A stretch of 64,000 nucleotides of DNA from Candidatus Nomurabacteria bacterium (GTDB lineage Bacteria > Patescibacteriota > Minisyncoccia > Phycocordibacterales > UBA918). Below, piece after piece: positions 23,394 to 43,252 of this stretch. The DNA is taken from NCBI GenBank assembly GCA_023898525.1, contig CP060227.1, forward strand, positions 710,440-774,439, read 5' to 3'. The number at the start of each line of letters is the position of its first letter. Position 1 is the first letter of the stretch. Below the pieces are notes generated by a model, which ran no database searches, was not told the DNA's origin, and saw only the letters and a program-made list of their open reading frames with translations. A program made the translations under genes and the position numbers.

Positions 23394-23570
23394 ATGGAAA
23401 ATAAATGTGATAACTGTAGTGAGTTTGCATTAAATATATGTGAATGGGATGGTGATTGTATGGGCAGGGTTTATGTTTTTAGAGCATGTTCTAAAGAGTG
23501 CAAAGAAATTATTGTACAAAGATTACAGCAAGAACATTTATGCTCATCTGATGAGCGGGGTTTCTTTTGA
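23394..23570 (+). CDS. small Cys-rich (zinc-ribbon-like) protein, 58 aa, inserted between rpsJ and rplC
   Basis: ORF 'MENKCDNCSEFALNICEWDGDCMGRVYVFRACSKECKEIIVQRLQQEHLCSSDERGFF' is below the ORF-track cutoff. A GAGG lies 7 nt before the ATG, and the hairpin GAGCGCTTTTTTT/AAAAAAAGCGCTC (23569-23596) follows. Confidence 0.35.
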   Translation: MENKCDNCSEFALNICEWDGDCMGRVYVFRACSKECKEIIVQRLQQEHLCSSDERGFF

Positions 23571-23602
23571 GCGCTTTTTTTTCTAAAAAAAGCGCTCTTT
23601 GC

Positions 23603-23754
23603 TTGCAAAAGGTTGAAAAATCAGTATACTAGCCACAGCTTTTAAAGACCTACGTACAGGAGGTGAGAAATCACTCCTAGACCAATGGGCACAAACCGCG
23701 TGATTTACGTTGGACTTTGTGTTCGCGTAATCACGCGGTTTGTTATTGGGTCTT
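23603..23754 (+). promoter_or_regulatory. promoter (TTGCAA-16nt-TATACT) plus structured leader upstream of rplC
   Basis: -35 at 23603-23608 and -10 at 23625-23630. The leader contains hairpin AGGAG-gtgagaaatca-CTCCT and a long stem ACAAACCGCGTGATTACG...CGTAATCACGCGGTTTGT (23691-23744), enclosed by AAGACC/GGGTCTT. Confidence 0.35.
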
Positions 23755-23784
23755 AGAGCTAATTATTAGTTTAGTTCACAGTAA

Positions 23785-25565: not shown

Positions 25566-26426
25566 ATGAAAAAATATAAACCAACTTCGGCTGGTCGACG
25601 TGATGGGTCGGTCATCGAATATAAGAAAAAACTTACATCAACTGACAGTAATCCGTACAAGCGGTTGACTGTCGGAAAGAAAAATACCGGAGGACGAAAT
25701 AGCCAAGGTCGTATTACTACTCACTACCGTGGTGCTGGTAACAAAAAGAATTATCGAATGGTAGACTTCCGTTATGATAAGAAGGATATTCCAGCTAGAG
25801 TAGAAACGATTGAGTACGATCCTAACCGCTCTGGTTTCATCGCTCTTGTTGTTTATAAGGATGGTGAGCGTCGCTATATTTTGGCGCCACAAAAACTAAA
25901 GCAGCACGATGAAATTATCACGTCTGAAAAGGCTAAGGTCAAAGTCGGTAATCGCTTACCACTTGGCACTATTTCGGTTGGTACTTTTGTCTACAACGTA
26001 GAAATCAAGCCGGGGGCTGGTGCTAAGCTAGCTCGTTCAGCTGGTAACTACGCTGAAGTGGTAGCACAAGATGACTCATACACTCTGCTTAAGATGCCGT
26101 CGACTGAAGTACGTCGTGTATCAGCTAGTGCTTGGGCTTCAATCGGTGCTGTATCAAACGAAGAGTACCGTTTGGTAGATATCGGTAAAGCTGGACGTGC
26201 TCGTCATAGGGGACTTCGTCCGAAGACTCGTGGTGCGGCTCGTAACGCAGTTGATCACCCACACGGAGGTGGTGAAGGACGATCACCACGTGGACACCGT
26301 CGTCAACGAACTAAACAAGGTCGTCCAACCGGAAAGGGACAAAAGACTCGTTCACCAAAGAAATACTCAAATGTATTTATTGTTTCTCGTCGCAAGCCAG
26401 GCCGGCTGATGGGCGGAAAAAGATAA
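25566..26426 (+). CDS. rplB: 50S ribosomal protein L2
   Basis: 'GRNSQGRITTHYRGAGNKKNYRMVDF', 'HPHGGGEGRSPRG'. Confidence 0.9.
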   Translation: MKKYKPTSAGRRDGSVIEYKKKLTSTDSNPYKRLTVGKKNTGGRNSQGRITTHYRGAGNKKNYRMVDFRYDKKDIPARVETIEYDPNRSGFIALVVYKDGERRYILAPQKLKQHDEIITSEKAKVKVGNRLPLGTISVGTFVYNVEIKPGAGAKLARSAGNYAEVVAQDDSYTLLKMPSTEVRRVSASAWASIGAVSNEEYRLVDIGKAGRARHRGLRPKTRGAARNAVDHPHGGGEGRSPRGHRRQRTKQGRPTGKGQKTRSPKKYSNVFIVSRRKPGRLMGGKR

Positions 26427-26431
26427 AACAA

Positions 26432-26466
26432 AAAACCTACGCGAAAAGCGTAGGTTTTTTGTTTTA
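26432..26466 (+). terminator. intrinsic terminator after rplB (left edge of accessory island 1)
   Basis: Hairpin CCTACGC-gaaaa-GCGTAGG followed by TTTTTTG; a second hairpin CACTGTGC-ctgc-GCACAGTG lies at 26469-26488. Confidence 0.6.
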
Positions 26467-26756
26467 GCACTGTGCCTGCGCACAGTGCGTATCTTTTTCC
26501 GAGCCGCAGGCATGTTTTTATTTTATTTCCTAAAAATAAAAACGGCCGAGGCGGGGTCGCGAGTACTTACTAGAATTGGAGTGTTAACGAACAATTATAG
26601 TTAGTAACTTGTGACGAAAGAGGTAAACCAAAAAAACTTACACAGAAGTGTTTTTGTTGTGTTAGAAAATACTTGCTTTTGACCGTTAAAAATGTAAAGT
26701 GTTCCCAATAGACTCTATTCCAGAGTCCTTTTATGTTCCTTAAGGAGATCTTTATC

Positions 26757-27377
26757 ATGAGTACAGAAAACCGAAAAGTCGTTAAGCTTGGTGATACTTT
26801 TGTTGCTTATATAGACGATAGTACTACTTGTGTTGGTATCGTTATTGAAAATGGTGTGGGTAGAAACAATGAGTCTTCACTGGTACTGGTATTAAGTTGG
26901 TTGACTACTACACCAAATCGTTTACCTGCTGCTGATGTTTTTGATAGACTTGGAGAAAGCTATGGATTTCCAACATTTAAAGAAATAAAAACGAGATTTA
27001 TTTTCCCGTATACTTTTGAAAACGAAATTAAATTATGTGAAAAACAGAGTAATGAATGGTGGGAAGAATTTCAGGATGGAGTATTGCGTGAAGGTTGTAA
27101 TTTGGTTGCGCGATATTTTAGTCCTAAAAATTCTTATGTGTTGACGTGTGTGGATGCTTCGCAGAAACTTATGCAAGGTATTGATCTTACTACAGACGAT
27201 AAGTTTAAATATTTTGGAACGGAAAAACTTCTCCTGCTGTGGGCTGTGCTTTTTCGTAAATTTCCAGATAAAGTAATACAATATCCTACTGAATTCCATT
27301 CCCAATCCGATCATACGGTTTATCGTGTTACTCTTGAAGGAGAATCTGTTAAAATAAAAACCGAAACTCGAGTTTAA
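26757..27377 (+). CDS. hypothetical protein
   Basis: Start trimmed to ATG 26757 (MSTENRKV...), preceded by AGGAGA; no recognisable domain. Confidence 0.45.
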   Translation: MSTENRKVVKLGDTFVAYIDDSTTCVGIVIENGVGRNNESSLVLVLSWLTTTPNRLPAADVFDRLGESYGFPTFKEIKTRFIFPYTFENEIKLCEKQSNEWWEEFQDGVLREGCNLVARYFSPKNSYVLTCVDASQKLMQGIDLTTDDKFKYFGTEKLLLLWAVLFRKFPDKVIQYPTEFHSQSDHTVYRVTLEGESVKIKTETRV

Positions 27378-27438
27378 TAAAAAGTTAGCCATAATACGTA
27401 CAGTGTTATGGCTAATTTCTAAATCGTAATTACAATCA

Positions 27439-27702
27439 CTACCCATACAACTCACTATGCGTCCCAATCGCTACAAACCTCACTATCTCATTTTTTTCTA
27501 TAATTACATATATCGCTCTAGTATCTCCAGTCACATCTATACTAAAATAACCTCGCCATTTTCCGGAGAGTCGGTGATTACGCAGACTTGGATCTTGTGG
27601 GGTTTCAATAAATTTTTCTAAGACAACAATGACTTTCTTTTTTGTAGCTTTGGGAAGCTTTGCAAAGTCTTTCTCAAAACTTTTGGAAAGAATATATTGC
27701 AT
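27439..27702 (-). CDS. type II toxin, RelE/YafQ family mRNA interferase
   Basis: 'HRLSGKWRGYFSIDVTGDTRAIYVI...VRFVAIGTHSELYG' matches the YafQ/RelE pattern (H.L.G.W.GYR...D..LIY...RTGTHS.LF). Confidence 0.7.
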   Translation of the reverse strand: MQYILSKSFEKDFAKLPKATKKKVIVVLEKFIETPQDPSLRNHRLSGKWRGYFSIDVTGDTRAIYVIIEKNEIVRFVAIGTHSELYG

Positions 27703-27703
27703 A

Positions 27704-27985
27704 CTAGAGAGATTTTAGGTGAGTGATGAGGTCTTTTTCAGACTTGAATGGACCGACAAAGTCACCAGCTTCATATTCTTTTTGGGCTTGTTCCAAGATA
27801 CTTTCTAGGTATGGGGCAGGGCGGTGATTGCTAGCGGAAAGGGTGATTTCTTTATCGCGAACAAATTGCTTAAGAAAAGCATTGATTACTGTACTGAGTG
27901 GTACACCAAGTTCTTCGGCTACTTTTTTAGCTTCTTTCTTCAGAGCTTTGTCGGTTTTTACATTTAGGATAGTGTGTGTATTCAT
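27704..27985 (-). CDS. type II antitoxin, DinJ/RelB family (RHH)
   Basis: Start trimmed to 'MNTHTILNVKTDKALKKEAKKVAEELGVPLSTVINAFLKQFV' (DinJ-like). The gene sits 1 nt upstream of the toxin, in the classic antitoxin-toxin order. Confidence 0.7.
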   Translation of the reverse strand: MNTHTILNVKTDKALKKEAKKVAEELGVPLSTVINAFLKQFVRDKEITLSASNHRPAPYLESILEQAQKEYEAGDFVGPFKSEKDLITHLKSL

Positions 27986-28003
27986 ATATACTAAAGTATA
28001 TAT
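27984..28003. promoter_or_regulatory. palindromic operator candidate at the DinJ-YafQ promoter (ATATATAC-TAAA-GTATATAT)
   Basis: Perfect 8-bp inverted repeat overlapping the antitoxin start, plus a nearby GTCA-agtaa-TGAC (28029-28041). Confidence 0.3.
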
Positions 28004-28137
28004 TTTGGTATATATAGTGTCAAGTAATGACAGGAACATTTTTGTTAAACGGTATTAAAAAATAATTGAAAAAGAACTTAAAAAACAATTATGATACTAT
28101 TTAATCAGAACTAATCTAATTGAACGGAGGGTTCTTT

Positions 28138-28380
28138 ATGAGTGAAAAGGAGAAATTCATTGCTGATGTAATGATTCGTTATAACTGGAGCAGAAAGGAT
28201 GCAGAAGAAACTTGGTCAAAGTCACAACTTATAAAATATTGGTTACTTTTTATTTTTGTTCCACTTCTTGCAACTTTTACCTCAGATTTTTTTGTAGTTA
28301 AGTCTGAAACCTTAATTGAATTTTTAGGTCAATTTTTAATTTGGTTTTTCTTGTCTTTACTGTGTTTGTATATGAGTTAG
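28138..28380 (+). CDS. small hypothetical membrane protein (2 TM)
   Basis: RBS GGAGGG before ATG 28138. Hydrophobic segments 'LIKYWLLFIFVPLLATF' and 'FLGQFLIWFFLSLLCLYM'. A terminator hairpin follows at 28388-28420. Confidence 0.4.
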   Translation: MSEKEKFIADVMIRYNWSRKDAEETWSKSQLIKYWLLFIFVPLLATFTSDFFVVKSETLIEFLGQFLIWFFLSLLCLYMS

Positions 28381-28387
28381 AGAGTAA

Positions 28388-28420
28388 TAAAACCACTGTG
28401 TAGAGCAGTGGTTTTTATTT
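28388..28420. terminator. bidirectional intrinsic terminator
   Basis: Hairpin AAAACCACTG-tgtagag-CAGTGGTTTTT. Confidence 0.6.
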
Positions 28421-28437
28421 AATTATTTTAAAAATGT

Positions 28438-29334
28438 TTACCTCAACGCCCTCCGCCATCCAGCTTCCACTGCTTCTTTCTCCGTACAAAACCACTGCTC
28501 CCCTTTATCTTCGGAGATAATTGTCTTAGTGTAATATTGCTGTCCCGGTACGTGATAAATTTTTTCACCGCTTTTACTGATATTTCCTTTTATTAAGCAA
28601 TTGGAAGTATTTGTTGTAACTACTTCGCTGGTATTGGTATTTTGGTTTGTATCTAACGTGTTGATGCTAGTAGGGCTAGCTTCAAAATTATCACAAGCAC
28701 CATCTGCCCAGAGACCAACTTTGTTTTCTTTGGCGTAGGTTTCGGCGGCTTTGTACTTCGCTTGTCTATCATAGGGGAGGTTATAGGTATACTCATAGGC
28801 AAAACCAGAACGGATCATGGTTTCACCAAAGTCACTACTGTCTGGGAGGCTTATGTAGGCAAGGGTACGACCATATTTATCATAAGTACCTTGACTGTCA
28901 TCGTAAGTAATAATTACTTTTTGGTCGCTCAGTAATCTTTTGGCTTCAGCAGAAGCTTCTCGGCCAAAACATTCTACTGTTTTTTCAGGATGAACTGTTT
29001 CGGGGGTATTGATACCAATTACTCGTATGGTTTCTATTTTTCCATTTAGGTCAACTTTGACCGTATCACCATCTACAACATACAGAACCTTGCCCCCGGT
29101 TCCACTTGTGTCGGATAGATTGTTCTGTGTCTCGATGCTGTTATTGCTTGTACTGGCGCCGCCTATAACCAAGGCCTCTTGTGAGGTGGGTTCTGGCTTC
29201 GTGTTGATGGTAGCCTCGGGGTTGGTTATCTCTGGTGGCTGGTTTTGTTGATCTTTTGGTTCAGGTGTTATGAGTGCCAAGACAAATAAAAAGGCAATAA
29301 TATAAAAAGTTTTGTTTTTAAGTTTACCTAACAT
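28438..29334 (-). CDS. secreted thermonuclease (SNase/micrococcal-nuclease family) with a C-terminal Cys-flanked domain
   Basis: N-terminal signal/TM 'FYIIAFLFVLALI'. The SNase core is 'VVDGDTVKV...IRVIGINTPE...ECFGREASAEAKRLL...YDKYGRTLAYI'. The C-terminal part is 'CLIKGNISKSGEKIYHVPGQQYYTKT...WFCTEKEAVEAGWRRA'. Confidence 0.75.
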   Translation of the reverse strand: MLGKLKNKTFYIIAFLFVLALITPEPKDQQNQPPEITNPEATINTKPEPTSQEALVIGGASTSNNSIETQNNLSDTSGTGGKVLYVVDGDTVKVDLNGKIETIRVIGINTPETVHPEKTVECFGREASAEAKRLLSDQKVIITYDDSQGTYDKYGRTLAYISLPDSSDFGETMIRSGFAYEYTYNLPYDRQAKYKAAETYAKENKVGLWADGACDNFEASPTSINTLDTNQNTNTSEVVTTNTSNCLIKGNISKSGEKIYHVPGQQYYTKTIISEDKGEQWFCTEKEAVEAGWRRALR

Positions 29335-29351
29335 GCGGTAGTTGTCTTTGG

Positions 29352-29594
29352 CTAAAAGTTTTTATAAGTCTTATCATTTCTTCTACTTATTTCCAAAATA
29401 TCTATTCTGTCGCGATTGGCTAAAAAGATTATACGAATTTTTTCTTTACGTACTCGAAAAACATCTGAATAACCAACCAACTTTTTTACATCGACCTGCT
29501 TTGTTTTACCCTCTTTTATGAGTTCAAGAATATCTGACAAGTCACTCAGTTCCTTGTTTGATAGTTTTTTAAGAAACTTTTCGTTTCTGTCCAT
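29352..29594 (-). CDS. type II toxin, ParE/RelE family
   Basis: 'FLKKLSNKELSD...KKLVGYSDVFRVRKEKIRIIFLANRDRIDILEISRRNDKTY' fits the ParE_toxin/RelE pattern. Confidence 0.65.
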   Translation of the reverse strand: MDRNEKFLKKLSNKELSDLSDILELIKEGKTKQVDVKKLVGYSDVFRVRKEKIRIIFLANRDRIDILEISRRNDKTYKNF

Positions 29595-29838
29595 GTGATT
29601 TTATTGAGGCTAACAATTCATCAATAGGCATACCTGTGCCAATTTCTTTAGGGAAGTCTACTATTGTTTCCCATCTTGTCTCGGAGTCATTATCGACTGG
29701 TGTTAATTTGAAAAGGGGGGTGGATCGGCGAAACACAGTTATAGACTCACCTTTGTTAACGCGAGCTATGTATTCTTCCATGTTCTCCCTCAACTCTTTT
29801 AAGCCAATCGTTTTAGTATTTTTTGCTTTTATAGGCAT
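29569..29838 (-). CDS. type II antitoxin, Phd/YefM family
   Basis: 'TIGLKELRENMEEYIARVNKGESITVFRRSTPLFKLTPV'; overlaps the downstream toxin gene by 26 nt. Confidence 0.7.
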   Translation of the reverse strand: MPIKAKNTKTIGLKELRENMEEYIARVNKGESITVFRRSTPLFKLTPVDNDSETRWETIVDFPKEIGTGMPIDELLASIKSHGQKRKVS

Positions 29839-29845
29839 GATTAGT

Positions 29846-29867
29846 AAGTTTATCTTAAGATAAACTT
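29846..29867. promoter_or_regulatory. perfect 22-bp palindrome AAGTTTATCTT|AAGATAAACTT immediately upstream of the Phd antitoxin (operator candidate)
   Basis: Read directly from the sequence; located 8 nt upstream of the antitoxin start. Confidence 0.4.
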
Positions 29868-29878
29868 TGGATCAATAT

Positions 29879-30199
29879 CTATACTCCCGGTTTTTTCTCT
29901 CTTGTTCTAAAGCTAAAACCGGCTAATTTTTTGTGTAAAGAAAGGGTATGAAATATATGAGGAGCCAGCTCTCCGTTACAGTGTACCGCTACTTTTTGGG
30001 TGCTTTGGCCGCTGATAATCAATTCCATGCCGGCGGTAGTGAAGACTCCGGTTATATGACGTTTGCCGGTTTTGCTACGTCTTCTTTTAATAATTCCCGG
30101 AGAAACTAGAGTTACTCCAGGAATTGTTTCCAGTATTTGTACGACCCCCTCTGCCGTTTCGGTGAGGGTGGTGTGTGTCCCTCCACGAATTTTTTTCAT
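29879..30199 (-). CDS. hypothetical protein (106 aa)
   Basis: ORF with basic patch 'GIIKRRRSKTGKRHITG'; no confident family assignment. Confidence 0.35.
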   Translation of the reverse strand: MKKIRGGTHTTLTETAEGVVQILETIPGVTLVSPGIIKRRRSKTGKRHITGVFTTAGMELIISGQSTQKVAVHCNGELAPHIFHTLSLHKKLAGFSFRTREKKPGV

Positions 30200-30299
30200 G
30201 CTTATATAATGACATGAATTTGATTCTGTGTCTAGGATTTTACTAGTCTGAATTCAAATCAAAGACCACAGCGTATTACGCCGTGGCTTTTATAATGAG

Positions 30300-30857
30300 T
30301 TATTTCATCAATGGACTTTGTATCATCATTAGGTGTCGGTCTACCCACTTACCTTGTTTAAAAACTGACTTTGGTACAGTACCGATATGAGTGAAACCGC
30401 ATTTTTGGTAACATTTCATACCGCGTGGGTTGGTGCTCAGGACAGATAGGGTTATAGTGCGCAACCCTCGTTGTTTGAAAGACCAGTAGAGCATGGTCTC
30501 AAGAGTTTGCGTGCCATAGCCGTTACCCCAGTACTCTTTGTTGCCAATAGCTATGCCGAAGGAACCTTCAAGATGAACATTGTTTATTCGGTCAATTCCT
30601 GTGGTACCAATCAGCTTTTGGTCTTTTCTGTGGTATATTCCCAGCTGCAGCTTTTTATCATTTTTGTACATTTTTGAAATGTAGTCCTTCTCAAACTCGG
30701 TAGTGATTGGAAATTCGCCGCCGTTTAGAAATTGGTTAACCTCAGGATCTTGAAACCACTCTAGGATTTTGTGTGCATCATGTTCTTCCAGTAAAACTAA
30801 GTCAAGGTCCTTGGTGGTTAGAAAAACTTGCTGCTTGGTTTTAATGATTGTACTCAT
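30300..30857 (-). CDS. GNAT family N-acetyltransferase (RimJ/RimL-like)
   Basis: 'IAIGNKEYWGNGYGTQTLETMLYWSFKQRGLRTITLSVLSTNPRGMKCYQKCGF' is the acetyl-CoA binding motif region. Confidence 0.8.
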   Translation of the reverse strand: MSTIIKTKQQVFLTTKDLDLVLLEEHDAHKILEWFQDPEVNQFLNGGEFPITTEFEKDYISKMYKNDKKLQLGIYHRKDQKLIGTTGIDRINNVHLEGSFGIAIGNKEYWGNGYGTQTLETMLYWSFKQRGLRTITLSVLSTNPRGMKCYQKCGFTHIGTVPKSVFKQGKWVDRHLMMIQSPLMK

Positions 30858-31166
30858 TTAAAAGATCTCCTTATATATTTATTAGTAAAAACTGAAAGTC
30901 AAAATAAATAACCTCGACATCCAGTCGAGGTTATATTTTTTTAAATATAGAGACTTTTAATTAATTAAAACCATAACCACGACCAGATACCGGCGATGAA
31001 CTTATCGTCATGACTGAATATGACACGATAAAGAACTCAGTAATCACTGAAGTGTTCTTAATTAGGTTGTGGTTAATAATATTTTGCATGTATTAATGAA
31101 GACGGGTGGCGTCGGGGTTTCTTACGGTTATTTGTTGTTAATCTTAATTAATAAGATGGTACAATA

Positions 31167-32678
31167 ATGAGTAATAAATTATTTGTTAAGCCACGTTTTA
31201 TCATGCAAGTTCAAAAAGTTTCGCTTTCAGTTTTAGTTATCAGCTTTGTATTCGCCTTGCTTTTCTTCCTAGCCCCATCTTTTTCTTATGCTCAAGCAGT
31301 GGAAGACTGTCAATTTAGCCGCACCTTGGAGGATGGGGTTGATGGTGAGGATGTGCGCTGTTTGCAAAGGTATTTAAATGCTTCTGGTTTTCAAATTGCG
31401 GAAAGTGGCCCGGGGGCACCAGGAGGTGAAACTTCGCTTTTTCGAACTTTGACCAGGGAAGCGGTGGTTAAGTGGCAGCAGGCTAAAAAGATAACCCCGG
31501 CTAGTGGAGTGTTTGGAGATAAGTCTAGAGCGGTCTATATGATGGATGTCTTGGCTAAACTTCAATTAGAAAAAAGTAAACAGGAAGCACCTTTGGTGAC
31601 GATTAATCCTATATCTGTAGTTAAACCACAGCCGACTGTTGTGGCCCAAGTAACTAGCTCTAATACCAAGGACAAAGAAGAGGCAGAAAGACAAATAATA
31701 TTTGTTTTGGCTATGATAATCGACGCTTACGAAGAAATAGGTAATATACGTAGTGATGATCCAGACGAAGCTGCAGATATTGATGAAGATGTACAGAGTG
31801 CTTTGAGAGACTTAGGTGATGTCCTCGAACAATACTTTGACGGAGAATTTAAGAGATCTAAAAGTTTAGCCCTTGATGTGCTGGATGATGCGACTGATTC
31901 TTTTGAGGACGCTGGTGGTGAGTCAGATAAAAGCAAGGCCGAAGATATCCTTGATGATGTCGAAGATTTATACAATGACATTGATGATTTGATTGACGAG
32001 GCAGAAGACGAAGATGAAGAAGTGGGTGATGCTCCTGACTTACTAGGTGAAGCGAAAGATCACTTGGATGATGCCAAAGATGCTTTCGATGATGGTGTAT
32101 ATAGTCAGGCTATTAGTGACGCGCTTGATGCTGAGGAGCTGCTAGAGGAAGCCCGTGGCGAGATAGATATAATTTCAGAAAATGATGCAGAGGCGTTTGT
32201 TGAAGATGTGCGAGATGAGCTAGGAAATGCTAGGGATGAGGTAAGTGACTCTAATGCAGACAGGGATGATGTAGAGGAAGCCGAGGGTCTTCTTGATAGC
32301 GCGGAACGTCGTCTAAAGAAAGCTGACATAGCTGTTGATGAAGAAGATTTTCGTAAGGCCGCTGATCTGGCGAAAGAGGCAGAGGAAATGATAGACGAGG
32401 CCCTTGATTTGGTGGATGGGTCAACAAAACGTGACGATGATGATAAGGCAGAAGATGCTTTAGATGATGCTAAGGATGAGCTGGGAGATGCTTGGAAAAA
32501 AGCAGAGAAGGCAAGTGATAAGGGAAAAAGTACTCGTAGTACAGAAAAGAAGTTAGCTAAGGCCGATGATCTATTGGACGAAGCGGGAGATGCGCTGGAT
32601 GATGAGGATTATGATGAGGTGCTAGATTTGGTAGATGAGGCACTAGACTTGATTGATGAAGCTTTGGATGAGATTTAG
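31167..32678 (+). CDS. secreted acidic repeat protein with a putative peptidoglycan-binding (PG_binding_1-like) domain
   Basis: Signal/TM 'VSLSVLVISFVFALLFFLAPSFSYAQA'. PG-binding-like 'CLQRYLNASGFQIAESGPGAPGGETSLFRTLTREAVVKWQQAKKITPASGVFGDKSRAVY'. A ~350-aa D/E-rich repetitive region follows (LDDAKDAFDDG..., LDEAGDALDDEDYDEVLDLVDEALDLIDEALDEI). Confidence 0.55.
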   Translation: MSNKLFVKPRFIMQVQKVSLSVLVISFVFALLFFLAPSFSYAQAVEDCQFSRTLEDGVDGEDVRCLQRYLNASGFQIAESGPGAPGGETSLFRTLTREAVVKWQQAKKITPASGVFGDKSRAVYMMDVLAKLQLEKSKQEAPLVTINPISVVKPQPTVVAQVTSSNTKDKEEAERQIIFVLAMIIDAYEEIGNIRSDDPDEAADIDEDVQSALRDLGDVLEQYFDGEFKRSKSLALDVLDDATDSFEDAGGESDKSKAEDILDDVEDLYNDIDDLIDEAEDEDEEVGDAPDLLGEAKDHLDDAKDAFDDGVYSQAISDALDAEELLEEARGEIDIISENDAEAFVEDVRDELGNARDEVSDSNADRDDVEEAEGLLDSAERRLKKADIAVDEEDFRKAADLAKEAEEMIDEALDLVDGSTKRDDDDKAEDALDDAKDELGDAWKKAEKASDKGKSTRSTEKKLAKADDLLDEAGDALDDEDYDEVLDLVDEALDLIDEALDEI

Positions 32679-32704
32679 GATTAAGTAAAATAATTCATAA
32701 AACA

Positions 32705-32739
32705 AAAAACGGTTTTCGCTTTGCGAAAACCGTTTTTTT
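32705..32739 (+). terminator. intrinsic terminator (copy 1 of a repeated element)
   Basis: Hairpin AAAACGGTTTTCGC-ttt-GCGAAAACCGTTTTTTT; near-identical to 33477..33507. Confidence 0.65.
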
Positions 32740-32778
32740 CATTGTCGTATCATTATTTTTTATATATACTCTACGTAG

Positions 32779-33453
32779 ATGTGGATAGTATTTTATACGT
32801 TTTTAAATTGTTTGGAGGCAATAGCTGTGAATACTTATGAACAAGCTTTACAATATAGAGCAAATTGTTTGAGGAAATTTGCTGACAGTCATCCAGAGTT
32901 GTGTGACCAGTCAGGGGAGGCTTTTTGGCCAATTCCGGTCATGATGTCGCTTATTTTTTCCAGAGGAATTAATTTATTGCAGGAAGAAATTGTTTAACTA
33001 TACGCACAAAACAATTGGCCGTTAGCAGAAGAGGTGTCCAAGATAAGAAATTTACTGGTCAAATTAGCTGCTGAGGGTGATTTAGGGGAAGATCATGTCG
33101 CTCCTTATCTAGCAGATCATCCAACACTACCCTCTTCTTTTGGTGACGGTCATTTTTTTGAACATTATCAAAAAGTCTTAAAACTCAACGATCCATTTAA
33201 GATACTTGGTTTTTTATACAGTATTGAAGTTGGATCGCTCGAGTTTGTGAAAGTTTTGGTAGAGAGAGGCTTGGTTAAGGAAGGTGGTTTATTTGCAAAA
33301 ATACACTTGAAAGTAGAGGAAAAGCATCGTAATTTAGCGATTTCAATTAGGGAAATGGTTATGCCTGAAACTTTTCGCAATAAATATAGGGCCGGTTTTG
33401 TGGGCGGTTGTGAGCTTCATGACGCTATGTATAAAAAAATAGCCAATAGTTAG
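32779..33453 (+). pseudogene. hypothetical protein gene interrupted by an in-frame TAA (32995-32997)
   Basis: ORFs 32779..32997 and 33034..33453 are in the same frame, separated only by one TAA; their family resemblance is uncertain. Confidence 0.4.
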
Positions 33454-33476
33454 AAGGTTGTCGGCTATGATTTAAG

Positions 33477-33507
33477 GCGGTTTTCGCTTTGCGAAAACCG
33501 TTTTTTT
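33477..33507 (+). terminator. intrinsic terminator (copy 2 of the repeated element)
   Basis: Hairpin GGCGGTTTTCGC-ttt-GCGAAAACCGTTTTTTT. Confidence 0.65.
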
Positions 33508-33692
33508 GTTGACTATATTAGTAAGTTTTTGTATTGTTTGGGCTGGTTTAATGTTATGAGGGTTTGTTGTAATGAGAAAGAGAACTGGTATATATTTCGG
33601 TTATTTTACAGATGTGAGATTTAAAAATGGAAGTTATCATTTTGAATTTACACATCATAAACATGTTAGTTTAATAGAAGTACCAATCGATA

Positions 33693-33881
33693 TTGTCTGT
33701 AAAAAAAAGTGTGGATGATAGTTTTCAAGTTAAGCTTGTAATAACTAGAGAAAGGAGAGAACCTGTAAGGCAGTTAATAGTCGACAATACTTTGGTTGTT
33801 GTTGAATTTGAAGATGGAAACCTGAAGGAAGTATACACACTCAGTCCTCAGGGGGTCTATGGTATCCCTTCTAAGTCTTAG
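33693..33881 (+). CDS. small hypothetical protein (possibly the 3' part of a gene frameshifted at an A8 run, 33572..33881)
   Basis: TTG-start ORF followed by a strong terminator. The upstream ATG ORF (33572..33718, other frame) would fuse to it if the A8 run at 33701-33708 were A7. Confidence 0.3.
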   Translation: MSVKKSVDDSFQVKLVITRERREPVRQLIVDNTLVVVEFEDGNLKEVYTLSPQGVYGIPSKS

Positions 33882-33886
33882 GTCTT

Positions 33887-33925
33887 AAGCCCGACAGTCG
33901 CAAAGCGACTGTCGGGCTTGTTCAT
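33887..33925 (+). terminator. intrinsic terminator (right edge of island 1)
   Basis: Hairpin AAGCCCGACAGTCGC-aaa-GCGACTGTCGGGCTT. Confidence 0.6.
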
Positions 33926-33929
33926 TTCA

Positions 33930-34096
33930 TTGACTTTTTTCTTTATTTCCAGTATTCTAGCAGGCGTTCCAACCTCAGTGAGGAATTAAGGATTCTATCT
34001 AAATCCTTATGTGTCACCTCACAAAAGTTATGAAGTTTAAGGGTTGGGAACCTCTGTTAAGGACGGCCGTTACCTTTCTTTACAAGAGGTTCCCAA
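33930..34096 (+). promoter_or_regulatory. promoter (TTGACT-17nt-TATTCT) and structured leader upstream of rpsS
   Basis: -35 at 33930-33935 and -10 at 33953-33958. A 12-bp stem TTGGGAACCTCT/AGAGGTTCCCAA (34044-34055/34085-34096) encloses the palindromic ACGGCCGT. Confidence 0.35.
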
Positions 34097-34148
34097 AACG
34101 CACTGAATTTTTTATGAAAGTGTGTATTTATTCGTATTAGTTAAGTAT

Positions 34149-34490
34149 ATGTCACGATCACTCTATAAAGGACCATATGTAGATGAGAAGTTGTTGAAGA
34201 AGATCGCCGGAAAAAAACCCGGAGAGGGTGGTGTCATCAAAACTTGGGCTCGCGCATCAGTGATTTCGCCTGAGATGGTAGGCTTTACCTTTGGTGTCCA
34301 CAACGGAAAAACTCATATTGAAGTTTTGGTAGCAGAAGAAATGGTAGGCCATCGGCTTGGTGAATTCTCTCCAACTAAGAAGTTCCATCGTCATGGAGGT
34401 AAGATGCAGAAAGAACTAGAACAGAAGAAGAAGGAAGCAGAAATTGCTGCTGCTAAAGCCGCTAAGTCTGCTGCCACTAGTAAGAAATAG
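34149..34490 (+). CDS. rpsS: 30S ribosomal protein S19 (with Lys/Ala-rich C-terminal extension)
   Basis: Start trimmed to '[12 protein letters not shown]...'; '[40 protein letters not shown]'. Confidence 0.85.
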
Positions 34491-37724: not shown

Positions 37725-37765
37725 TAATTTGGTTTTTTTAAACTTGATTTTAGTTACCAAGACAC

Positions 37766-37803
37766 GCAAAAACGCCGCCCATATATGGGCGGCGTTTTTG
37801 CGT
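37766..37803 (+). terminator. intrinsic terminator after rplE (left edge of island 2)
   Basis: Hairpin GCAAAAACGCCGCCC-atatat-GGGCGGCGTTTTTGC. Confidence 0.65.
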
Positions 37804-37876
37804 ACTTAAACCGATTATGAAAAAAGTAAAATACATGCTATATATAAATCAGATTAACTAGACATAAGGAGATGTT

Positions 37877-38398
37877 ATGAGTTCTGATTATTTTCAGGGA
37901 GTAGTTCTGCTACTGGTGTGTTTGCTACTATTGATACAGCCTATTATGAAATGGTATGCGTACTATACACCAAAGTACAGGCCGACTTTAGGCGGATTAA
38001 GAGAGCTTTGGAAAGAGTTAAAAAAGGATGTTTTTGGAGTTACTTTAGAATTAAATGGTGAGAAGGTGTCTGAAAATAGACTAAAAGAACTGATTGAGTC
38101 TCGTGGTTATATGAGTTCAGATTGGTCGGCCATTTTTACATATATACCTAGTCTAGAGCAAGGGATGCATGGTTCAATTGATTTCCGTGCTCTAGATACT
38201 GAACCCAGGAAGATTCATTTTCGTTCAAGCCAAAGCAATACTACGGTAACTTCAAACTGGGCTTTTGGTCTTAGGAAAGACGATATAGAAAAATTTAAAA
38301 CAATCGCTAAATATGGGATATCTTGTCCACCTCGGTGGCAGAAGGTTGTCTTCTATCTTGCACCGTCTTTTTATGTAAAAAAATATTTTCAAAGTTAA
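37877..38398 (+). CDS. hypothetical membrane-anchored protein
   Basis: RBS AGGAG before the ATG; N-terminal TM 'VVLLLVCLLLLIQPIMKWY'; no recognisable family. Confidence 0.45.
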   Translation: MSSDYFQGVVLLLVCLLLLIQPIMKWYAYYTPKYRPTLGGLRELWKELKKDVFGVTLELNGEKVSENRLKELIESRGYMSSDWSAIFTYIPSLEQGMHGSIDFRALDTEPRKIHFRSSQSNTTVTSNWAFGLRKDDIEKFKTIAKYGISCPPRWQKVVFYLAPSFYVKKYFQS

Positions 38399-38481
38399 GT
38401 ATAATATGTTCGTTTAAGCGCCGCGTTTACTGTGGCGCTTTTTCAAATCAGGGTTTAAAAAATGTTATTATATTATGCATT

Positions 38482-39327
38482 ATGTACATAATATTTGATA
38501 TCGGGGGGACAAAGACACGGGTGGCGGCAAGCGAGGATCTTAAGACTTATGGTACGCCACTAAAATTTGACACCCCACTAAATTATGGAGAAGCAATTGC
38601 GGTAATCAGTAAGGCAATAGAAGAAGTTAGTCAGGGTAAGGAAATTAAAGGAATGGCAGGCGGAATTCGTGGTCGACTAAGGCGCGACAAGAGTGGACTC
38701 ATGGGTGAGGTGGTTTTGACCGATTGGGTGGACAAGCCATTGGTTGATGATCTAAGTAAGAAGTTTGGTGCGCCGGTTTTCATAGAAAATGACACGGCTA
38801 TTGTGGGTCTTGGAGAGGCTGTTTTCGGTGCCGGGCACGGCTATGATATTGTAGCCTATCATACGGTCAGTACTGGAGTTGGAGGAGCTAGATTGGTTGG
38901 AGGGAAGGTTGATGTGGCTAGTATTGGCTTTGAACCTGGACACCAGATTCTAGATTTAGATCAGAGTATTTTTGGTAAAGAAACTTTGCATACACTAGAA
39001 AATCTGGTTTCCGGTACCGCTCTACAAGATCGTCGAGGAGTGAAGCCTTACGAAATAGACCAGTCTGATCCGGTTTGGGATGAGTTGGCTTATTATTTGG
39101 CGGTTGGTCTTCGCAACACCATTTTGTACTGGTCGCCGGACGCGATTGTGCTTGGTGGTTCAATGGTGGTGGGTGATCCGCGTATTTTTAGAGAGGATAT
39201 TATAAAACATACCGAAAAAGTGCTAGACGGCTTTGTACCGTGTCCACCTATTCTTGATGCGACTCTAAAAGATGAAGGAGGTTTATATGGAGCGATAGCA
39301 CTGTTGTCAGAGAAGCTTGGTAAGTAG
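38482..39327 (+). CDS. ROK/BadF-type sugar kinase family protein (glucokinase/N-acetylglucosamine kinase-like)
   Basis: Start trimmed to 'MYIIFDIGGTKTRVAA' (ATP-binding phosphate-1 motif); 'FIENDTAIVGLGEAVFGAGHG' and 'VSTGVGGARLVGGK'. Confidence 0.65.
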   Translation: MYIIFDIGGTKTRVAASEDLKTYGTPLKFDTPLNYGEAIAVISKAIEEVSQGKEIKGMAGGIRGRLRRDKSGLMGEVVLTDWVDKPLVDDLSKKFGAPVFIENDTAIVGLGEAVFGAGHGYDIVAYHTVSTGVGGARLVGGKVDVASIGFEPGHQILDLDQSIFGKETLHTLENLVSGTALQDRRGVKPYEIDQSDPVWDELAYYLAVGLRNTILYWSPDAIVLGGSMVVGDPRIFREDIIKHTEKVLDGFVPCPPILDATLKDEGGLYGAIALLSEKLGK

Positions 39328-39361
39328 GTTTGGTTTTAAAAGGTAAAAAAAGTAAGAGGGT

Positions 39362-39400
39362 AAAACAAGTAGGGTGGCCGAAGGCCGCCCTACTTGTTTT
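39362..39400 (+). terminator. intrinsic terminator hairpin (copy 1 of a repeated element)
   Basis: AAAACAAGTAGGGTGGCC-gaa-GGCCGCCCTACTTGTTTT; differs at 2 positions from the copy at 41569..41607. Confidence 0.6.
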
Positions 39401-39444
39401 ACATAGTAACAGCAATTAATACACGTAAGTATTGCTATAATTAT

Positions 39445-41551
39445 CTTATGTCAAATCCAGAAATAATAAAGTATGTAAAACAGCAGCTATCAGCTGGGTA
39501 CTCTAAAGAGAAAATAATCAAAGTTCTACTTTCAAGTGGTTGGAAAAAAGAAGATATTGACAATGCTTTTATAGAGGCTGAAGGAGGGGTTTATGAGTTA
39601 AATCAAACCGAAGGCATTACTGACTTACGGATAAATAACAGTTTGGAAGCTGCAGATAAAGAAGTTGTGGAGAAAGAAACTATTTCTGAGATAACTGAAC
39701 CAAAGGCTAACTTAACACCGGTTTTTAGTATTAGCGACAGTAATTGCCGGAGTTACTTTGTTTGGGGTTATTCAGATTAGCTACAATCAATCAATAATAT
39801 TTAATATTTTTAATCTCTTTGCCATACCAGCTTATGTGGTGGTCGGTATCTTGGTGTTTATATCACTGCGAATATTTAAACGTTTGTACAGAACTACAGG
39901 TAAATCCATCCGGTCTTTTTTGATGATTTTATCCACATACTTTTTAAGTATAATCGCTCTCATATATTTGTTTTATTTAGGAGTTGAACTCTATTCGGTT
40001 AACATACCCGGCACATCTATGTGGGGTTATTTCTTTGTAGCTGCGACTGCTGTACAGATATCTTATGCTGTATTTCATCTAGGTCTTGTCCTATTGATGG
40101 TTTTAATGATTAAGAACATTAAGAAAAAGCCAGTATCGGCATCGGCTGCTGAGTCGAGTCCAATGTTTGTGAAGATAAGTAATGTGACTATATCTATTGC
40201 TGTGTTGTTGCTTATTTATTTTCTGGGTTTGGTGTCTCCGCTTGCAAAAATGACGGGGTCGCAATCTTTATGTAGCCTCGTTTACCATACACATGTTAAG
40301 ACAGAGTGTTTAACGGAAAACTCTATAAATATTAAGGATTCGGTTTATAAAACTGAAGCGGGTAATTTTGGTGTCATTGTCGATGATGAAATGATAGGTG
40401 ATATTGAAGTGGTGGGCGATAAGATAGTTTATACTCTCGTGGAGCGTGAAATGGGCAATACTGTTGTATCTGTTGTTTATGATGGTAAGGTTTTGGGTGA
40501 ATATGAGGCTGTATACAGACTTACAGACCTAGATGGCAAATTAGCTTACTTGATTGAGAATAAAACAGGATCCAGAAGCCCGTATACTCTATTTTATGAT
40601 GGAGAAAAATATATGGATCTCAACAAAGATGTTTATGATTTAACAAATATAAATGGAAAGGTAGCCTTTAAGGTATATGATATGAATAACCCTTACGTAT
40701 ACTTTGATGGGAAGAATTATAACAATAATTATGTTTATGTAGATTTACTTATTGCTTATTCTGGTCAGCCAGCCTTTGTCGGCAAAAGAGATTCACAATA
40801 TTATATTGCAATAGGAGACCAGGAGTTTGGTCCTTATTCAGGTATGGGTACTTTGGATGAGAAAGACGGACACTTGTTTTCATTAATTATAAATAACGGA
40901 GACCTACAGGCTTTTGTGGACGGACAAGTTGGTTGGATAGGAAAAAAGTATAATGATGATAAGATCACATCCTTTGCTAATAATAGTAGCTTAGGAAAGG
41001 TGAGAAGGATAGTTGATCTAATTGACGGTCAGTTATCAACTGTTGTCAGCAAAAACGGTAAGGGCGTATTAGTTGTTGGAGATCAGGAAGTGACAGAAGT
41101 AGCCTCTTATGATTCCGGACCATATATTATTGACGGCAAGTTAGGTTACTTGGCTTTAAATAGCGACGGTTCATCACAATTTATGATTGATGATCAGATG
41201 GTGCCTAATAATATCTTTAATGAGCCTGTCTATGATGTGGCTGTATCAAAGTCAGGTAAAATTGCTGTCCAAACCAAAGATAAAAATGACGTTATCAGGG
41301 TCTATGTTGATGGACAGATTGTATATGAAGGAGGTGCTAGTATTAACAGTATACAAAAAGGTATAAATTTTGTAGGAGATAAGTTGCTTTTTAGTATCAC
41401 AGGAAGTGATGGGGTTTCGGATCTTTGGTATAACAACGCAATTATTAAAGGTAATTATCTAAATTTTAAACAAACTATTGCTTTGAATGATAAGTTATTG
41501 ATTTTTGCAGAGAAAAAAGATGGTAAGGGTATTATTTTGTTAGAACAGTGA
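39445..41551 (+). CDS. hypothetical multi-TM protein with a large beta-rich repeat ectodomain; apparent +1 frameshift at a T5 run (39722-39726)
   Basis: Frame-1 ORF (MSNPEIIKYVKQQLSAGYSKEKIIKV...) ends at 39780. Frame-2 upstream of the annotated 39758 start reads 'FLVLATVIAGVTLFGVIQ...' (TM helices) with no start codon. Deleting one T from the T5 run fuses the frames. The C-terminal domain has repeated 'YxDGK/VxDGQ' beta-strand modules. Confidence 0.45.
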
Positions 41552-41568
41552 TTTTAGTATGTGACTAT

Positions 41569-41607
41569 AAAACAAGTGGGGCGGCCGAAGGCCGCCCTAC
41601 TTGTTTT
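41569..41607 (+). terminator. intrinsic terminator hairpin (copy 2 of the repeated element)
   Basis: AAAACAAGTGGGGCGGCC-gaa-GGCCGCCCTACTTGTTTT. Confidence 0.6.
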
Positions 41608-41666
41608 CTCAAACCAAAAGTGTAACATTGCAAATCTGAATAACAACTGGTTCTTTGGAGGGTAAG

Positions 41667-41900
41667 ATGAAGATCAGAACCATGCTCCTACTGTTCTTGG
41701 TACTGCTATCACCAACCTGTGTTAAGGCAAAGATTGTTCACATAGAGCATTTTATATTAGTAGCCAATATAAATATTCACAGCCATCAGCTCCCTGGCTT
41801 AAGGTACTGTGTTCAAACTGTGAGCCGACCGGTTTATATAGATAACCTCGGTCACCCAGTCCTGGGTGTCAGAAAGGTAGAAATAAGGTGTCATAATTAA
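41667..41900 (+). CDS. small secreted hypothetical protein (signal peptide)
   Basis: RBS GGAGGG before ATG 41667; 'MKIRTMLLLFLVLLSPTCVKA' is signal-peptide-like. Confidence 0.4.
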   Translation: MKIRTMLLLFLVLLSPTCVKAKIVHIEHFILVANINIHSHQLPGLRYCVQTVSRPVYIDNLGHPVLGVRKVEIRCHN

Positions 41901-41928
41901 GTTAGTATATTAGGTGATAAGGTTAAGT

Positions 41929-41959
41929 AAAAATCCCCGACCGGTGCGGGGATTTTTTT
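41929..41959. terminator. bidirectional intrinsic terminator
   Basis: Hairpin AAAAATCCCCG-accggtg-CGGGGATTTTTTT between convergent genes. Confidence 0.65.
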
Positions 41960-41961
41960 AG

Positions 41962-42360
41962 TTATGAGCTGAGAGAAAGTATAGCTGCAACTCTTTCTTT
42001 CGTTTCGGTGTACGAATCATTTCCTGGATCTAACTCTATTGCCATTTCTATAAAATATAATGCCTCGTTGTTATTTTGTAATGACAGTATTGATCCCAAA
42101 ACATAAGCAGCTTTGGCCAAGTTAAGCTTATGTTTCTCTTGGCAATCACAATCCATCTCTTTTGAGGTGTTGTATTCTTCAGAAGCGTTTCTAAAAGTTT
42201 GGCGGGCAAAGGCCTCGGCCTCTGTCTGCTTCCCTATAGATACAAAAGCGTGGATCTTGTCATAATGTACAATTACCTCGGAACAACTTTCTTTATAAAT
42301 AAAAAACAACGAAATAATCAACGGCATTACAGCTACAAGAATCGTTATTATTTTCTTCAT
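41962..42360 (-). CDS. small membrane-anchored TPR-like protein
   Basis: N-terminal TM 'IITILVAVMPLIISLFFIY'; TPR-like 'AAYVLGSILSLQNNNEALYFIEMAIELDPGN'. Confidence 0.45.
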   Translation of the reverse strand: MKKIITILVAVMPLIISLFFIYKESCSEVIVHYDKIHAFVSIGKQTEAEAFARQTFRNASEEYNTSKEMDCDCQEKHKLNLAKAAYVLGSILSLQNNNEALYFIEMAIELDPGNDSYTETKERVAAILSLSS

Positions 42361-42420
42361 CAGCTTTTCCTTGTACTTAGTTGAACAGATTTACGGATAA
42401 CAATACAACATAAAAGATAA

Positions 42421-42456
42421 AAAACAACCCCGAAACGAGTTCGGGGATTTTGGGTT
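42421..42456. terminator. intrinsic terminator hairpin
   Basis: CCCCGAA-cgag-TTCGGGG flanked by A-run and T-run. Confidence 0.55.
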
Positions 42457-42462
42457 TATATC

Positions 42463-42957
42463 TTATAGCTCTTTTATCTTTCCAGAAGGATAAGCGATAA
42501 ATAAAGGTCTATGATCCTGGATTTTTATTGTATAAGGATCGACCTCTAATACTTTTATTGGTTTGTGAAGAATTTTCGATAATTCCAGAAAATTTTTATG
42601 GGAGCGAGGAAATGCGCCAAGATCCTCATAGTCTTTAATCTCTAGAGGTAGTTCAACTTCTGCATATTTAAGTGTATGTCTGTTCAATCCACCCCAACTA
42701 AAATTAAAAGGAAAGTTTCTAGGTACTGGCTCTGTTTGAGGGTTAAAAACCGGACGTAACATTTGTGGTGTTACTCCAATGGCTATTAGGAGATCTTCTA
42801 AATTAACGTCATAGTCTTCACCAATAAATATGTAGGTGTGCATGTCGATTCTATTGCAATGTGACTTTGCATCAAAAATAAGTATATCAGCCTCTACAAA
42901 TTTTTGCCTTATTTCTACATACAGTTCAGCAATTTCTTTTGTATATTCATATCCCAT
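42463..42957 (-). CDS. hypothetical protein
   Basis: Start trimmed to ATG (MGYEYTKE...), preceded by AAGGAG with a 5-nt spacer; no recognisable family. Confidence 0.45.
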   Translation of the reverse strand: MGYEYTKEIAELYVEIRQKFVEADILIFDAKSHCNRIDMHTYIFIGEDYDVNLEDLLIAIGVTPQMLRPVFNPQTEPVPRNFPFNFSWGGLNRHTLKYAEVELPLEIKDYEDLGAFPRSHKNFLELSKILHKPIKVLEVDPYTIKIQDHRPLFIAYPSGKIKEL

Positions 42958-43065
42958 TTCTTCTCCTTTCAATGAGTATTTGTAAAAAATTACATTTACG
43001 AATTTCCTTAAGTATTTAATAACGAATTAGTAGAAAAGTCAATGGTTTGTAATAGATTGAAACGA

Positions 43066-43093
43066 TTGACAATACCTATATTTCTGATATTCT
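43066..43093 (+). promoter_or_regulatory. sigma70-like promoter (TTGACA-16nt-TATTCT) restarting the spc segment upstream of rpsN
   Basis: -35 at 43066-43071 and -10 at 43088-43093; ~160-nt leader before the GTG start of S14. Confidence 0.35.
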
Positions 43094-43252
43094 TCTTGGC
43101 AAGGCGATGGGTGGGTAACTCGTAAGAAAACCTGGCCGGAGCTGCTTGATTTGCCCAAATTTGAATAAATTTATGAGCAAATTAAGCGATTATCAGGAAG
43201 TAAGTCACGACAAACTACGTGATACTACTTCATAGAAATAACTAAATAAAAA

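Follow-up and report, generated by a model that had tools for sequence, protein, structure and literature searches.

The rplB-rpsS interval of a Nomurabacteria genome, a probable local state of a lineage-wide break in the S10 ribosomal protein operon

The genes rplB and rpsS, which encode ribosomal proteins L2 and S19, are separated by 7,722 bp of non-ribosomal genes (rplB stop to rpsS start) in a 64,000-nt stretch of DNA from a metagenome-assembled genome (MAG) of Candidatus Nomurabacteria/Paceibacterota, in the Candidate Phyla Radiation (CPR). This whole stretch is referred to below as the window. The interval is probably the local state of an ancient break in the S10 operon that runs through the lineage. 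It would be a zone, insulated by a terminator, in which genes accrete, and not a recently acquired mobile island. The genes and signals that frame it are:

25566-26426, plus strand: rplB (L2), with Pfam matches to Ribosomal_L2_N and Ribosomal_L2_C; last gene of the rplC-rplD-rplW-rplB unit

26424-26466, bidirectional: intrinsic-terminator hairpin with an A-run, 19-bp arms that are 100% complementary and a T-run; overlaps the rplB stop codon

33930-33958, plus strand: predicted rpsS promoter TTGACT-17-TATTCT, assigned by hexamer match and by its conserved position and sequence

34149-34490, plus strand: rpsS (S19), Pfam Ribosomal_S19, E 2.7e-32

The L2 protein of the window is identical to P0001, a protein named as L2 of Candidatus Nomurabacteria. 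On the other side of the interval, rpsS heads the unit rpsS-rplV-rpsC-rplP-rpmC-rpsQ-rplN-rplX-rplE, which ends at 37724, and its ATGTCACGATCA start is kept in 23 relatives. An initial annotation, made from the window alone, had placed the end of rplB at 26426 and the start of rpsS at 34149 with about 7.7 kb of accessory genes between them, and the Pfam matches on both flanks bear this out. Its premise that the two genes are normally adjacent holds for bacteria in general. It fails for this lineage, as the following comparison indicates.

Relatives were sampled at one genome per species, giving 80 loci with L2 identities of 58-87%, and the proteins of the window were mapped onto all of them. 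Only two of the 65 related loci that carry both genes have rplB and rpsS less than 60 bp apart; in the remainder the spacing is 0.1-10 kb. The synteny check suggested in the initial annotation thus finds the genes contiguous in only these two relatives. At L2 identities of at least 74%, rpsS was found in 20 loci, and 19 of them have a spacing of 1 kb or more; at identities of 66-74% the spacing is 0.4-1.2 kb in all seven. The closest L2 homologues (94% and 86% identity) do not have rpsS next after rplB either. Their rplB genes are followed, as in the window, by a gene for a 106-aa protein, a GNAT acetyltransferase gene and a gene for a protein of about 500 aa. A closed chromosome, CP060229.1 (locus L024), has a gap of 5.4 kb. 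No empty site is seen, in that no relative with L2 identity of at least 66% has an rplB-rpsS gap below 260 bp, and only sub-segments of the gap vary. On these sequence comparisons, the break is ancestral to a wide clade of Paceibacteria and lineage-wide rather than a private insertion.

The same loci show that the break is specific within the cluster. Junctions rplC-rplD, rplD-rplW, rplW-rplB, rpsS-rplV, rplV-rpsC and rpsC-rplP have median spacings of 24-60 bp, and together these six exceed 300 bp in three cases. Two further junctions are open. The rpsJ-rplC spacing is at least 350 bp in 27 of 27 loci with L2 identity of at least 66%, and rplE-rpsN is open in 39 of 41 loci. In the window these two intervals measure 500 bp and 5.5 kb. 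Because rpsJ-rplC, rplB-rpsS and rplE-rpsN are open and the six other junctions are tight, the gene cluster as read from these loci is cut at three fixed junctions throughout the group.

The window comes from a MAG, and the initial annotation itself raised the possibility that two ribosomal protein contig ends had been joined through unrelated DNA during assembly or binning. Such a chimera can be discounted with near certainty, because independent closed chromosomes such as CP060229.1 show the same cut. A separate 81-kb contig (GCA_020632175.1) also matches a segment of 20.9 kb (15566-36426) at 100% identity, and a contig of 1.09 Mb is recorded as encoding the same L2 protein. Dozens of independent sequences, from MAGs and metagenome contigs to closed chromosomes, repeat the order rplB, antisense DUF2103 gene, leader, rpsS.

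Both edges of the interval carry transcription signals. The terminator that the initial annotation placed directly after rplB is there as a predicted, perfect hairpin, and a second hairpin follows at 26467-26488. Between 22.8 and 38 kb the window holds 30 terminator-like sites, compared with 10.8 +/- 3.6 in shuffled sequences (roughly three-fold), and promoter-like sites and terminators punctuate every unit of the gap region. At the distal edge, the earlier claim that rpsS has its own promoter gains weight from the relatives, in which TTGACT-17-TATTCT is kept in sequence and position. A TTGACTTTT...GTATTCT/GTACTAT box lies upstream of the leader hairpin P1 (see below) in 15 of 19 genome loci. 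It recurs in 49 of 72 metagenome contigs, nearly always 77-101 nt before the motif used in the search, and in 0.3% of background windows.

The predicted promoter is followed by a structured leader, as the initial annotation had also proposed. Its fold is more stable than expected (z = -4.2), and its main hairpin is conserved and covaries. Its parts are:

33965-34148, plus strand: 5' leader of rpsS, about 185 nt

33965-33978, plus strand: 5' motif CGTTCCAACCTCAG, present as a GTTCC..AACCTC form in 52 of 72 metagenome contigs

33978-34022, plus strand: hairpin P0, from the leader fold

34046-34097, plus strand: hairpin P1, with an apical GG-CCGUUA-CC and an invariant loop, defined by covariation

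34098-34132, plus strand: hairpin P2, GC-rich, with a U-rich tail; terminator-like

Hairpin P1 carries most of the comparative evidence. RNAalifold run on 18 sequences returns 17 base pairs, 13 of which show compensatory changes. None of 500 shuffles reaches the observed values, and controls in which the partner strand is slid out of register pair at 45-76%. Pairing holds in 97.6% of cells over 69 distinct sequences. Single pairs are exchanged outright, one being UA in 33 sequences and CG in 30, another CG in 37 and AU in 26, and frequent G-U pairs fix the strand. With a covariance model of P1, each locus gives exactly one match, which lies upstream of rpsS on the sense strand. When metagenomes were scanned with the apical motif of P1, 84 contigs were returned and 80 analysed. 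In all 74 with enough downstream sequence, rpsS follows the searched motif on the same strand at a distance of 76-317 nt.

A P2-like terminator hairpin is present in 42 of 60 distinct leaders, compared with 3.5% of shuffles, and its stems differ in sequence. Rfam 15 gives no gathering-level match anywhere in the window, and permissive E-values applied to the rpsS and rplC leaders bring up unrelated families far below threshold. The rpsS leader is probably an autoregulatory or attenuator leader.

A less favoured but still respectable explanation, to which we would give a minority share of the probability, is that the leader hairpins merely stabilize or process the mRNA, or act as a constitutive pause or terminator, and do not form a ribosomal protein binding site. 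Hairpins at the 5' end are common in bacterial ribosomal protein transcripts, P2 resembles an ordinary terminator, and P1 has no mimic in E. coli rRNA. However, the 6-nt loop of P1 is invariant and its internal-loop nucleotides are conserved, even though 13 of the 17 stem pairs have changed. An invariant loop amid changing stems argues for sequence-specific recognition over a generic stabilizer.

One further observation concerns the P1 loop. Read as its reverse complement, the sequence at 34069-34078 (GGCCGUUACC) agrees at 9 of 10 positions with E. coli 16S rRNA positions 259-268, in the loop region of helix 11. This complementarity is within chance, with 10 matches at two or fewer mismatches vs 4.9 expected, and serves as a lead at most.

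A second leader precedes rplC. In the region 23585-23784, a conserved promoter-like TTGCAA-16-TATACT at 23603-23630 is followed by a 150-nt leader (about 23630-23784) that is conserved in about 25 relatives. The leader contains motifs AAAGACCTAYGT and GACCAATGGGCAC and a covarying long-range stem, AAACCGCG...CGCGGTTT, in which 7 of 14 pairs are compensatory. A T-rich run comes after the stem. Permissive searches of Rfam returned no match to this leader. It is a candidate second ribosomal protein leader, possibly of the L4 type, and its conservation and covariation support the view that each module has its own control region. In the window, the rplC, rpsS and rpsN modules are each preceded by their own promoter-like site and a long 5' leader.

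The other two gaps have contents of their own. Within rpsJ-rplC, a lone Cys-rich ORF (open reading frame) of 58 aa at 23394-23570 lies between two terminators; it has several C-x2-C-like pairs and no family match. The rplE-rpsN gap (37725-43252, from the rplE end at 37724 to the rpsN start at 43253) holds a ROK-family kinase gene (38323-39327), a gene whose 597-aa product is hydrophobic in its N-terminal part, and unknown ORFs in both orientations. Upstream of rpsN, a TTGACA-16-TATTCT with a TG-extended -10 box (43066-43093) precedes a leader some 160 nt long.

Between the rplB terminator and the rpsS promoter, the following genes and gene remnants are found:

26757-27377, plus strand: unknown ORF i214, 206/214 aa; GC 0.35; absent from every relative examined

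27439-27702, minus strand: YafQ/ParE-superfamily toxin, PF15738, 41.7 bits (cut-off 30)

27704-27985, minus strand: RelB/DinJ antitoxin, PF04221, 25.6 bits (cut-off 22.4)

28138-28380, plus strand: unknown small hydrophobic ORF i86; GC 0.31; terminator downstream at 28389-28415

28438-29334, minus strand: secreted staphylococcal-nuclease-family protein (SNase), PF00565, E 2.4e-25; N-terminal hydrophobic segment

29352-29594, minus strand: 80-aa ORF overlapping the phd stop codon; putative toxin by its position beside Phd; no family match

29569-29838, minus strand: Phd/YefM-family antitoxin, TIGR01552, 31.2 bits (cut-off 20.8)

29879-30199, minus strand: DUF2103-family protein of 106 aa (i106), found by clustering of gap ORFs

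30300-30857, minus strand: GNAT acetyltransferase, Acetyltransf_3, E 1e-21; terminator at 30287-30265 on the minus strand

31167-32678, plus strand: very acidic repeat protein, secreted, with an N-terminal PG_binding_1 domain (Pfam); terminator at 32704-32738

32827-33453, plus strand: pseudogene, interrupted by an in-frame TAA (32995-32997) at a codon that is Lys in L002

33572-33881, plus strand: frameshifted gene, with an A8 run at 33701-33708, by comparison with a 111-aa homologue in L006; terminator at 33886-33920

Most of the gene list in the initial annotation survives, namely YafQ, DinJ, SNase, Phd, GNAT, the acidic peptidoglycan-binding protein and the two interrupted genes. What does not is 'ParE', for which there is no model match.

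Three of these genes appear to be long-term residents of the gap. Eighteen related genome loci have the DUF2103 gene in their rplB-rpsS gap, on the minus strand every time. Of 26 additional metagenome contigs with both flanking genes, 25 contain it. Against PF09876, whose gathering cut-off is 22.4 bits, the window protein reaches 21.4 bits. Many of its close homologues have precomputed PF09876 matches, and one is named a DUF2103 protein by the National Center for Biotechnology Information (NCBI). Two of three divergent homologues again adjoin rplB.

Eleven genome loci have orthologues of the acidic peptidoglycan-binding protein, whose gene showed internal repeats in the repeat search. The strand is plus in every case, and the usual position is directly after rplB. 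The GNAT gene is limited to three loci, the window and its closest relatives L002 and L006.

The placement of the acidic protein gene varies. Loci L017, L028, L021, L041, L016 and L024 have it on the same strand as rplB and within the first 70-380 nt after it. In those relatives, it may ride on the ribosomal protein transcript. In the window, L002 and L006, the gene is instead found at the distal end of the gap, which suggests that this sub-clade underwent a rearrangement.

The remaining genes turn over faster. Locus L002 is the closest relative, with an L2 that is 94% identical. In L002, relB is 89% identical to the window copy and in the same place, yafQ is 78% identical with a stop at codon 2, and the 80-aa ORF is reduced to a C-terminal remnant of 45 aa. 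ORFs i214 and i86, the nuclease gene and phd are absent from L002, where the gap opens with another gene and includes a block of four genes (LGT, radical SAM and others). The SNase gene is found in the window genome only among the loci compared, being missing from both L002 and L006. It matches the PADLOC candidate family 'SNc+LTD' (E 2.9e-45). A PADLOC scan of the gap ORFs returned nuclease matches only, with no recognized defence system or partner gene near the nuclease.

GC fractions are 0.41-0.44 for the residents, 0.31-0.37 for most cargo ORFs and the pseudogenes, and 0.38-0.40 for relB and phd, compared with a window mean of 0.415. For the gap as a whole, GC is 0.38 vs 0.42-0.43 in the flanks (s.d. 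0.045 in 600-bp windows).

The initial annotation had identified two type II toxin-antitoxin (TA) modules. The DinJ-YafQ module is upheld, with both genes above curated family cut-offs and abutting at 27702/27704. It is preceded by a promoter-like TTGACA-17-TATACT on the minus strand (28023-27995), in which 11 of 12 positions match. The Phd-ParE module stands in part. Phd matches TIGR01552 and, weakly and below cut-off, Pfam PF02604. The ParE half finds no support, as the 80-aa ORF has no ParE/RelE match in Pfam (E up to 5), NCBIfam, PADLOC or sequences in the Protein Data Bank (PDB). The name ParE was therefore dropped for this ORF. TA cassettes also occur in the rpsJ-rplC gap of L006. The cassettes are recurrent passengers of the gaps and not their cause.

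Both interrupted genes have intact counterparts, as expected from the earlier description of them as such. A single intact gene of 208/209 aa in L002 and L008 matches the pseudogene, and the frameshifted gene corresponds to the 111-aa gene of L006.

Two repeats lie within the gap. An exact 30-nt terminator-hairpin repeat (CGGTTTTCGCTTTGCGAAAACCGTTTTTTT) at 32710-32739 and 33478-33507 brackets the pseudogene. A 25-nt inverted repeat, matching at 22 of 25 positions, has its copies 4.1 kb apart at 26741-26765 and 30849-30873. In both i214 and the GNAT gene it spans the ribosome-binding site plus codons 1-3 (ATGAGTACA), and it may be either the scar of an inversion or a translation-initiation region that was copied.

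These data bear on the proposal in the initial annotation that the S10 operon, intact apart from this site, received a discrete accessory island stabilized by TA modules. A recent mobile element would suit the presence of two TA modules, a nuclease, pseudogenes and lowered GC between genes that are adjacent in most bacteria, and also the lack of i214, i86, SNase and phd in L002. However, the operon is broken in 63 of 65 related loci, and the DUF2103, acidic protein and GNAT genes are orthologous residents of the same gap in relatives. The TA cassettes are common to L002 and have decayed there. Scans of the gap ORFs (26.4-34.1 kb) with Pfam, NCBIfam and PADLOC found no integrase, recombinase, transposase or other mobility gene. 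A search of the whole window found no tRNA, and the repeat search found internal repeats with no direct (attachment) repeat bracketing the block. The promoter and leader at the distal edge are kept well beyond this genome. A recent island is contradicted for the block as a whole and is very unlikely, although sub-segments such as the SNase region (about 28.4-29.3 kb) could have had such an origin.

It is also conceivable that the residents are translation-linked factors kept by the ribosomal genes, with the GNAT being of the RimJ/RimL type and the DUF2103 protein associated with the ribosome. The GNAT is a secure member of the general family, scoring 78.5 bits against Acetyltransf_3 (cut-off 25.4), a Pfam family that includes RimJ and RimL. 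It also has weak NCBIfam matches to S5- and S18-alanine acetyltransferases. The DUF2103 gene almost always adjoins rplB.

Specific assignments fall short, however. The GNAT reaches 27.2 bits against PRK10809 (RimJ), where the cut-off is 190, and 25.2 bits against TIGR01575 (RimI), where it is 86.4. Its top NCBIfam match is PseH, and its restriction to three loci speaks against retention for translation, as do the location of these genes on the opposite strand and their own terminators. A structure model of the DUF2103 protein has no informative structural neighbour. A translation link for the residents is consequently improbable.

The third divergent DUF2103 homologue (L175 7001-7321, 62% identical) lies between the translational GTPase genes bipA and ychF. 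This placement is a weak hint of a translation-related role.

The reading we prefer, an old and insulated break, can be set out as a sequence of steps. The S10-spc cluster would be cut at three fixed junctions into separately transcribed modules. The upstream module would end at the strong bidirectional terminator after rplB, such that rplC-rplB transcripts stop at 26466, and rpsS-rplE would be transcribed from the promoter at 33930-33958. Insertions into the spacer would be harmless because it is transcriptionally insulated from essential genes, and genes would therefore accrete there.

The accreted genes would fall into an old core and a fast-turnover cargo. The core would comprise the antisense DUF2103 gene, the acidic peptidoglycan-binding surface protein and, in the nearest relatives, the GNAT. 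The cargo would comprise two toxin-antitoxin pairs, the secreted nuclease, unknown ORFs and decaying pseudogenes. Cargo genes, whether convergent or divergent, would be expressed from signals of their own. A ribosomal protein encoded in the rpsS-rplE unit may bind P1 and thereby modulate termination at P2 or translation initiation.

The operon would have been split transcriptionally first, and the insulated spacer filled afterwards. The smallest gaps in mid-distance relatives, 260 bp in L027 and 411 bp in L031, hold the promoter and leader and at most two ORFs of 53-68 aa; L027 also has a GC-rich hairpin with a T-run directly upstream of the promoter. Such gaps, made up mainly of promoter and leader, are consistent with a split that preceded filling.

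Several points weigh against this scheme or limit it. The transcription start site, termination and attenuation are predictions from sequence. Bare promoter hexamers are no better than chance in their frequency, with 32 sites found vs 32.8 expected. A simple attenuator model also has to accommodate the extra 100-150 nt that separate P2 from the start codon in about half of the leaders. The search of E. coli 16S, 23S and 5S rRNA (rrnH) with the P1 model and the loop motif gave no sense-strand mimic. L2 identity stands in for phylogeny, and 'ancestral' accordingly denotes parsimony over identity bands. Lastly, the gap of L002 was compared within 10 kb, with rpsS lying beyond, and a search for S19 returned no S19 protein on its 623-kb contig; looking up the exact S19 sequence of the window likewise gave no match.

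A broader proposal is put forward tentatively, as an open contest that may go either way. The S10-spc cluster may have been cut ancestrally at the three junctions into modules with their own promoters and leaders of new classes. The rpsS and rplC leaders may be undescribed autoregulatory RNAs specific to the CPR, and the gaps may be safe-harbour hot spots for lineage-specific genes, among them those for surface proteins, TA cassettes and nucleases.

Elsewhere in the window, the interval from secY (45863-47134) to adk (48800-49396), at 47135-48800, contains a guanylate kinase gene (48038-48766) and a minus-strand ORF of 235 aa (47473-48180). This arrangement is another departure from the usual order of the spc operon. 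Three paralogous genes for proteins of about 800-870 aa lie at 16056-18470, 55368-57989 and 61579-63993. The first has precomputed Pfam matches of the Pel9A-like beta-helix type, and it shares 95% DNA identity with the second across 1.7 kb.

No bacterial operon is regarded as more rigid than the S10-spc cluster, and both CPR phylogenomics and the checking of metagenomic bins routinely take its genes to be co-linear on a single scaffold. A whole class with three open junctions, holding 0.1-10 kb of variable genes, changes this expectation. It would also offer a natural system for the subdivision of an essential operon, in which terminator, promoter and leader come first and gene accretion after. 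The rpsS and rplC leaders are testable candidates for ribosomal protein feedback in organisms that have reduced, unusual ribosomes and no cultured model. Strain-variable surface and defence genes of these episymbiont-like bacteria may be sought in the gaps.

Our search of the literature on the CPR S10 operon, ribosomal leaders and synteny found no report of the split or of its leaders. Operon fragmentation and ribosomal protein leaders are already known as kinds, and the rpsS leader appears to be previously uncatalogued.

In E. coli, the S10 leader mediates NusA-dependent attenuation and translational control by L4. The rpsS leader resembles it as the 5' leader of an S10-cluster unit, with a recognition-type hairpin ahead of a terminator-like one that has a U-rich tail. 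Here too, the product of a downstream ribosomal protein gene is presumed to exert feedback. However, the E. coli leader precedes rpsJ and the one described here precedes rpsS. L4 is encoded in the preceding unit, and the ligand must therefore differ. The rpsS leader also has no sequence or structure match to the Rfam ribosomal leaders, and its mechanism is proposed by analogy.

The chromosomal type II TA cassettes of the RelB/DinJ-YafQ and Phd-toxin kinds are likewise recognizable here as two small genes, antitoxin first, with overlapping or abutting frames. In this setting, they would be gap passengers that neither define nor maintain the gap. Copies in the nearest relative are decaying, and the second toxin has no recognizable family.

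Further parallels come from comparative genomics. An L2 leader before rplB-rpsS-rplV-rpsC in Alphaproteobacteria and an L4 leader before rplC in Archaeoglobi have been described (Eckert and Weinberg 2020, PMC7247131). Like the leaders reported here, these are internal, restricted to a clade and placed before a subset of S10-cluster genes. That study lists no leader directly before rpsS, and its main text does not mention Parcubacteria, Patescibacteria or 'candidate phyla'. Unlike its examples, the leaders in the present lineage occur where the operon is physically split and kilobases of genes have been inserted.

In Gammaproteobacteria and Bacilli, according to the parts of PMC8046335 that deal with such events, insertions begin the disconnection of translational operons. 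The events covered in those parts lie mostly between operons, with one inside the rpoBC operon. The resemblance, as far as that account extends, is that a few genes are inserted first and full disconnection follows later at junctions of translational clusters. In contrast to the cases given there, the breaks described here fall inside the S10 and spc operons, at three fixed junctions and in nearly every Paceibacteria locus sampled, and each is accompanied by a dedicated, conserved predicted promoter and leader.

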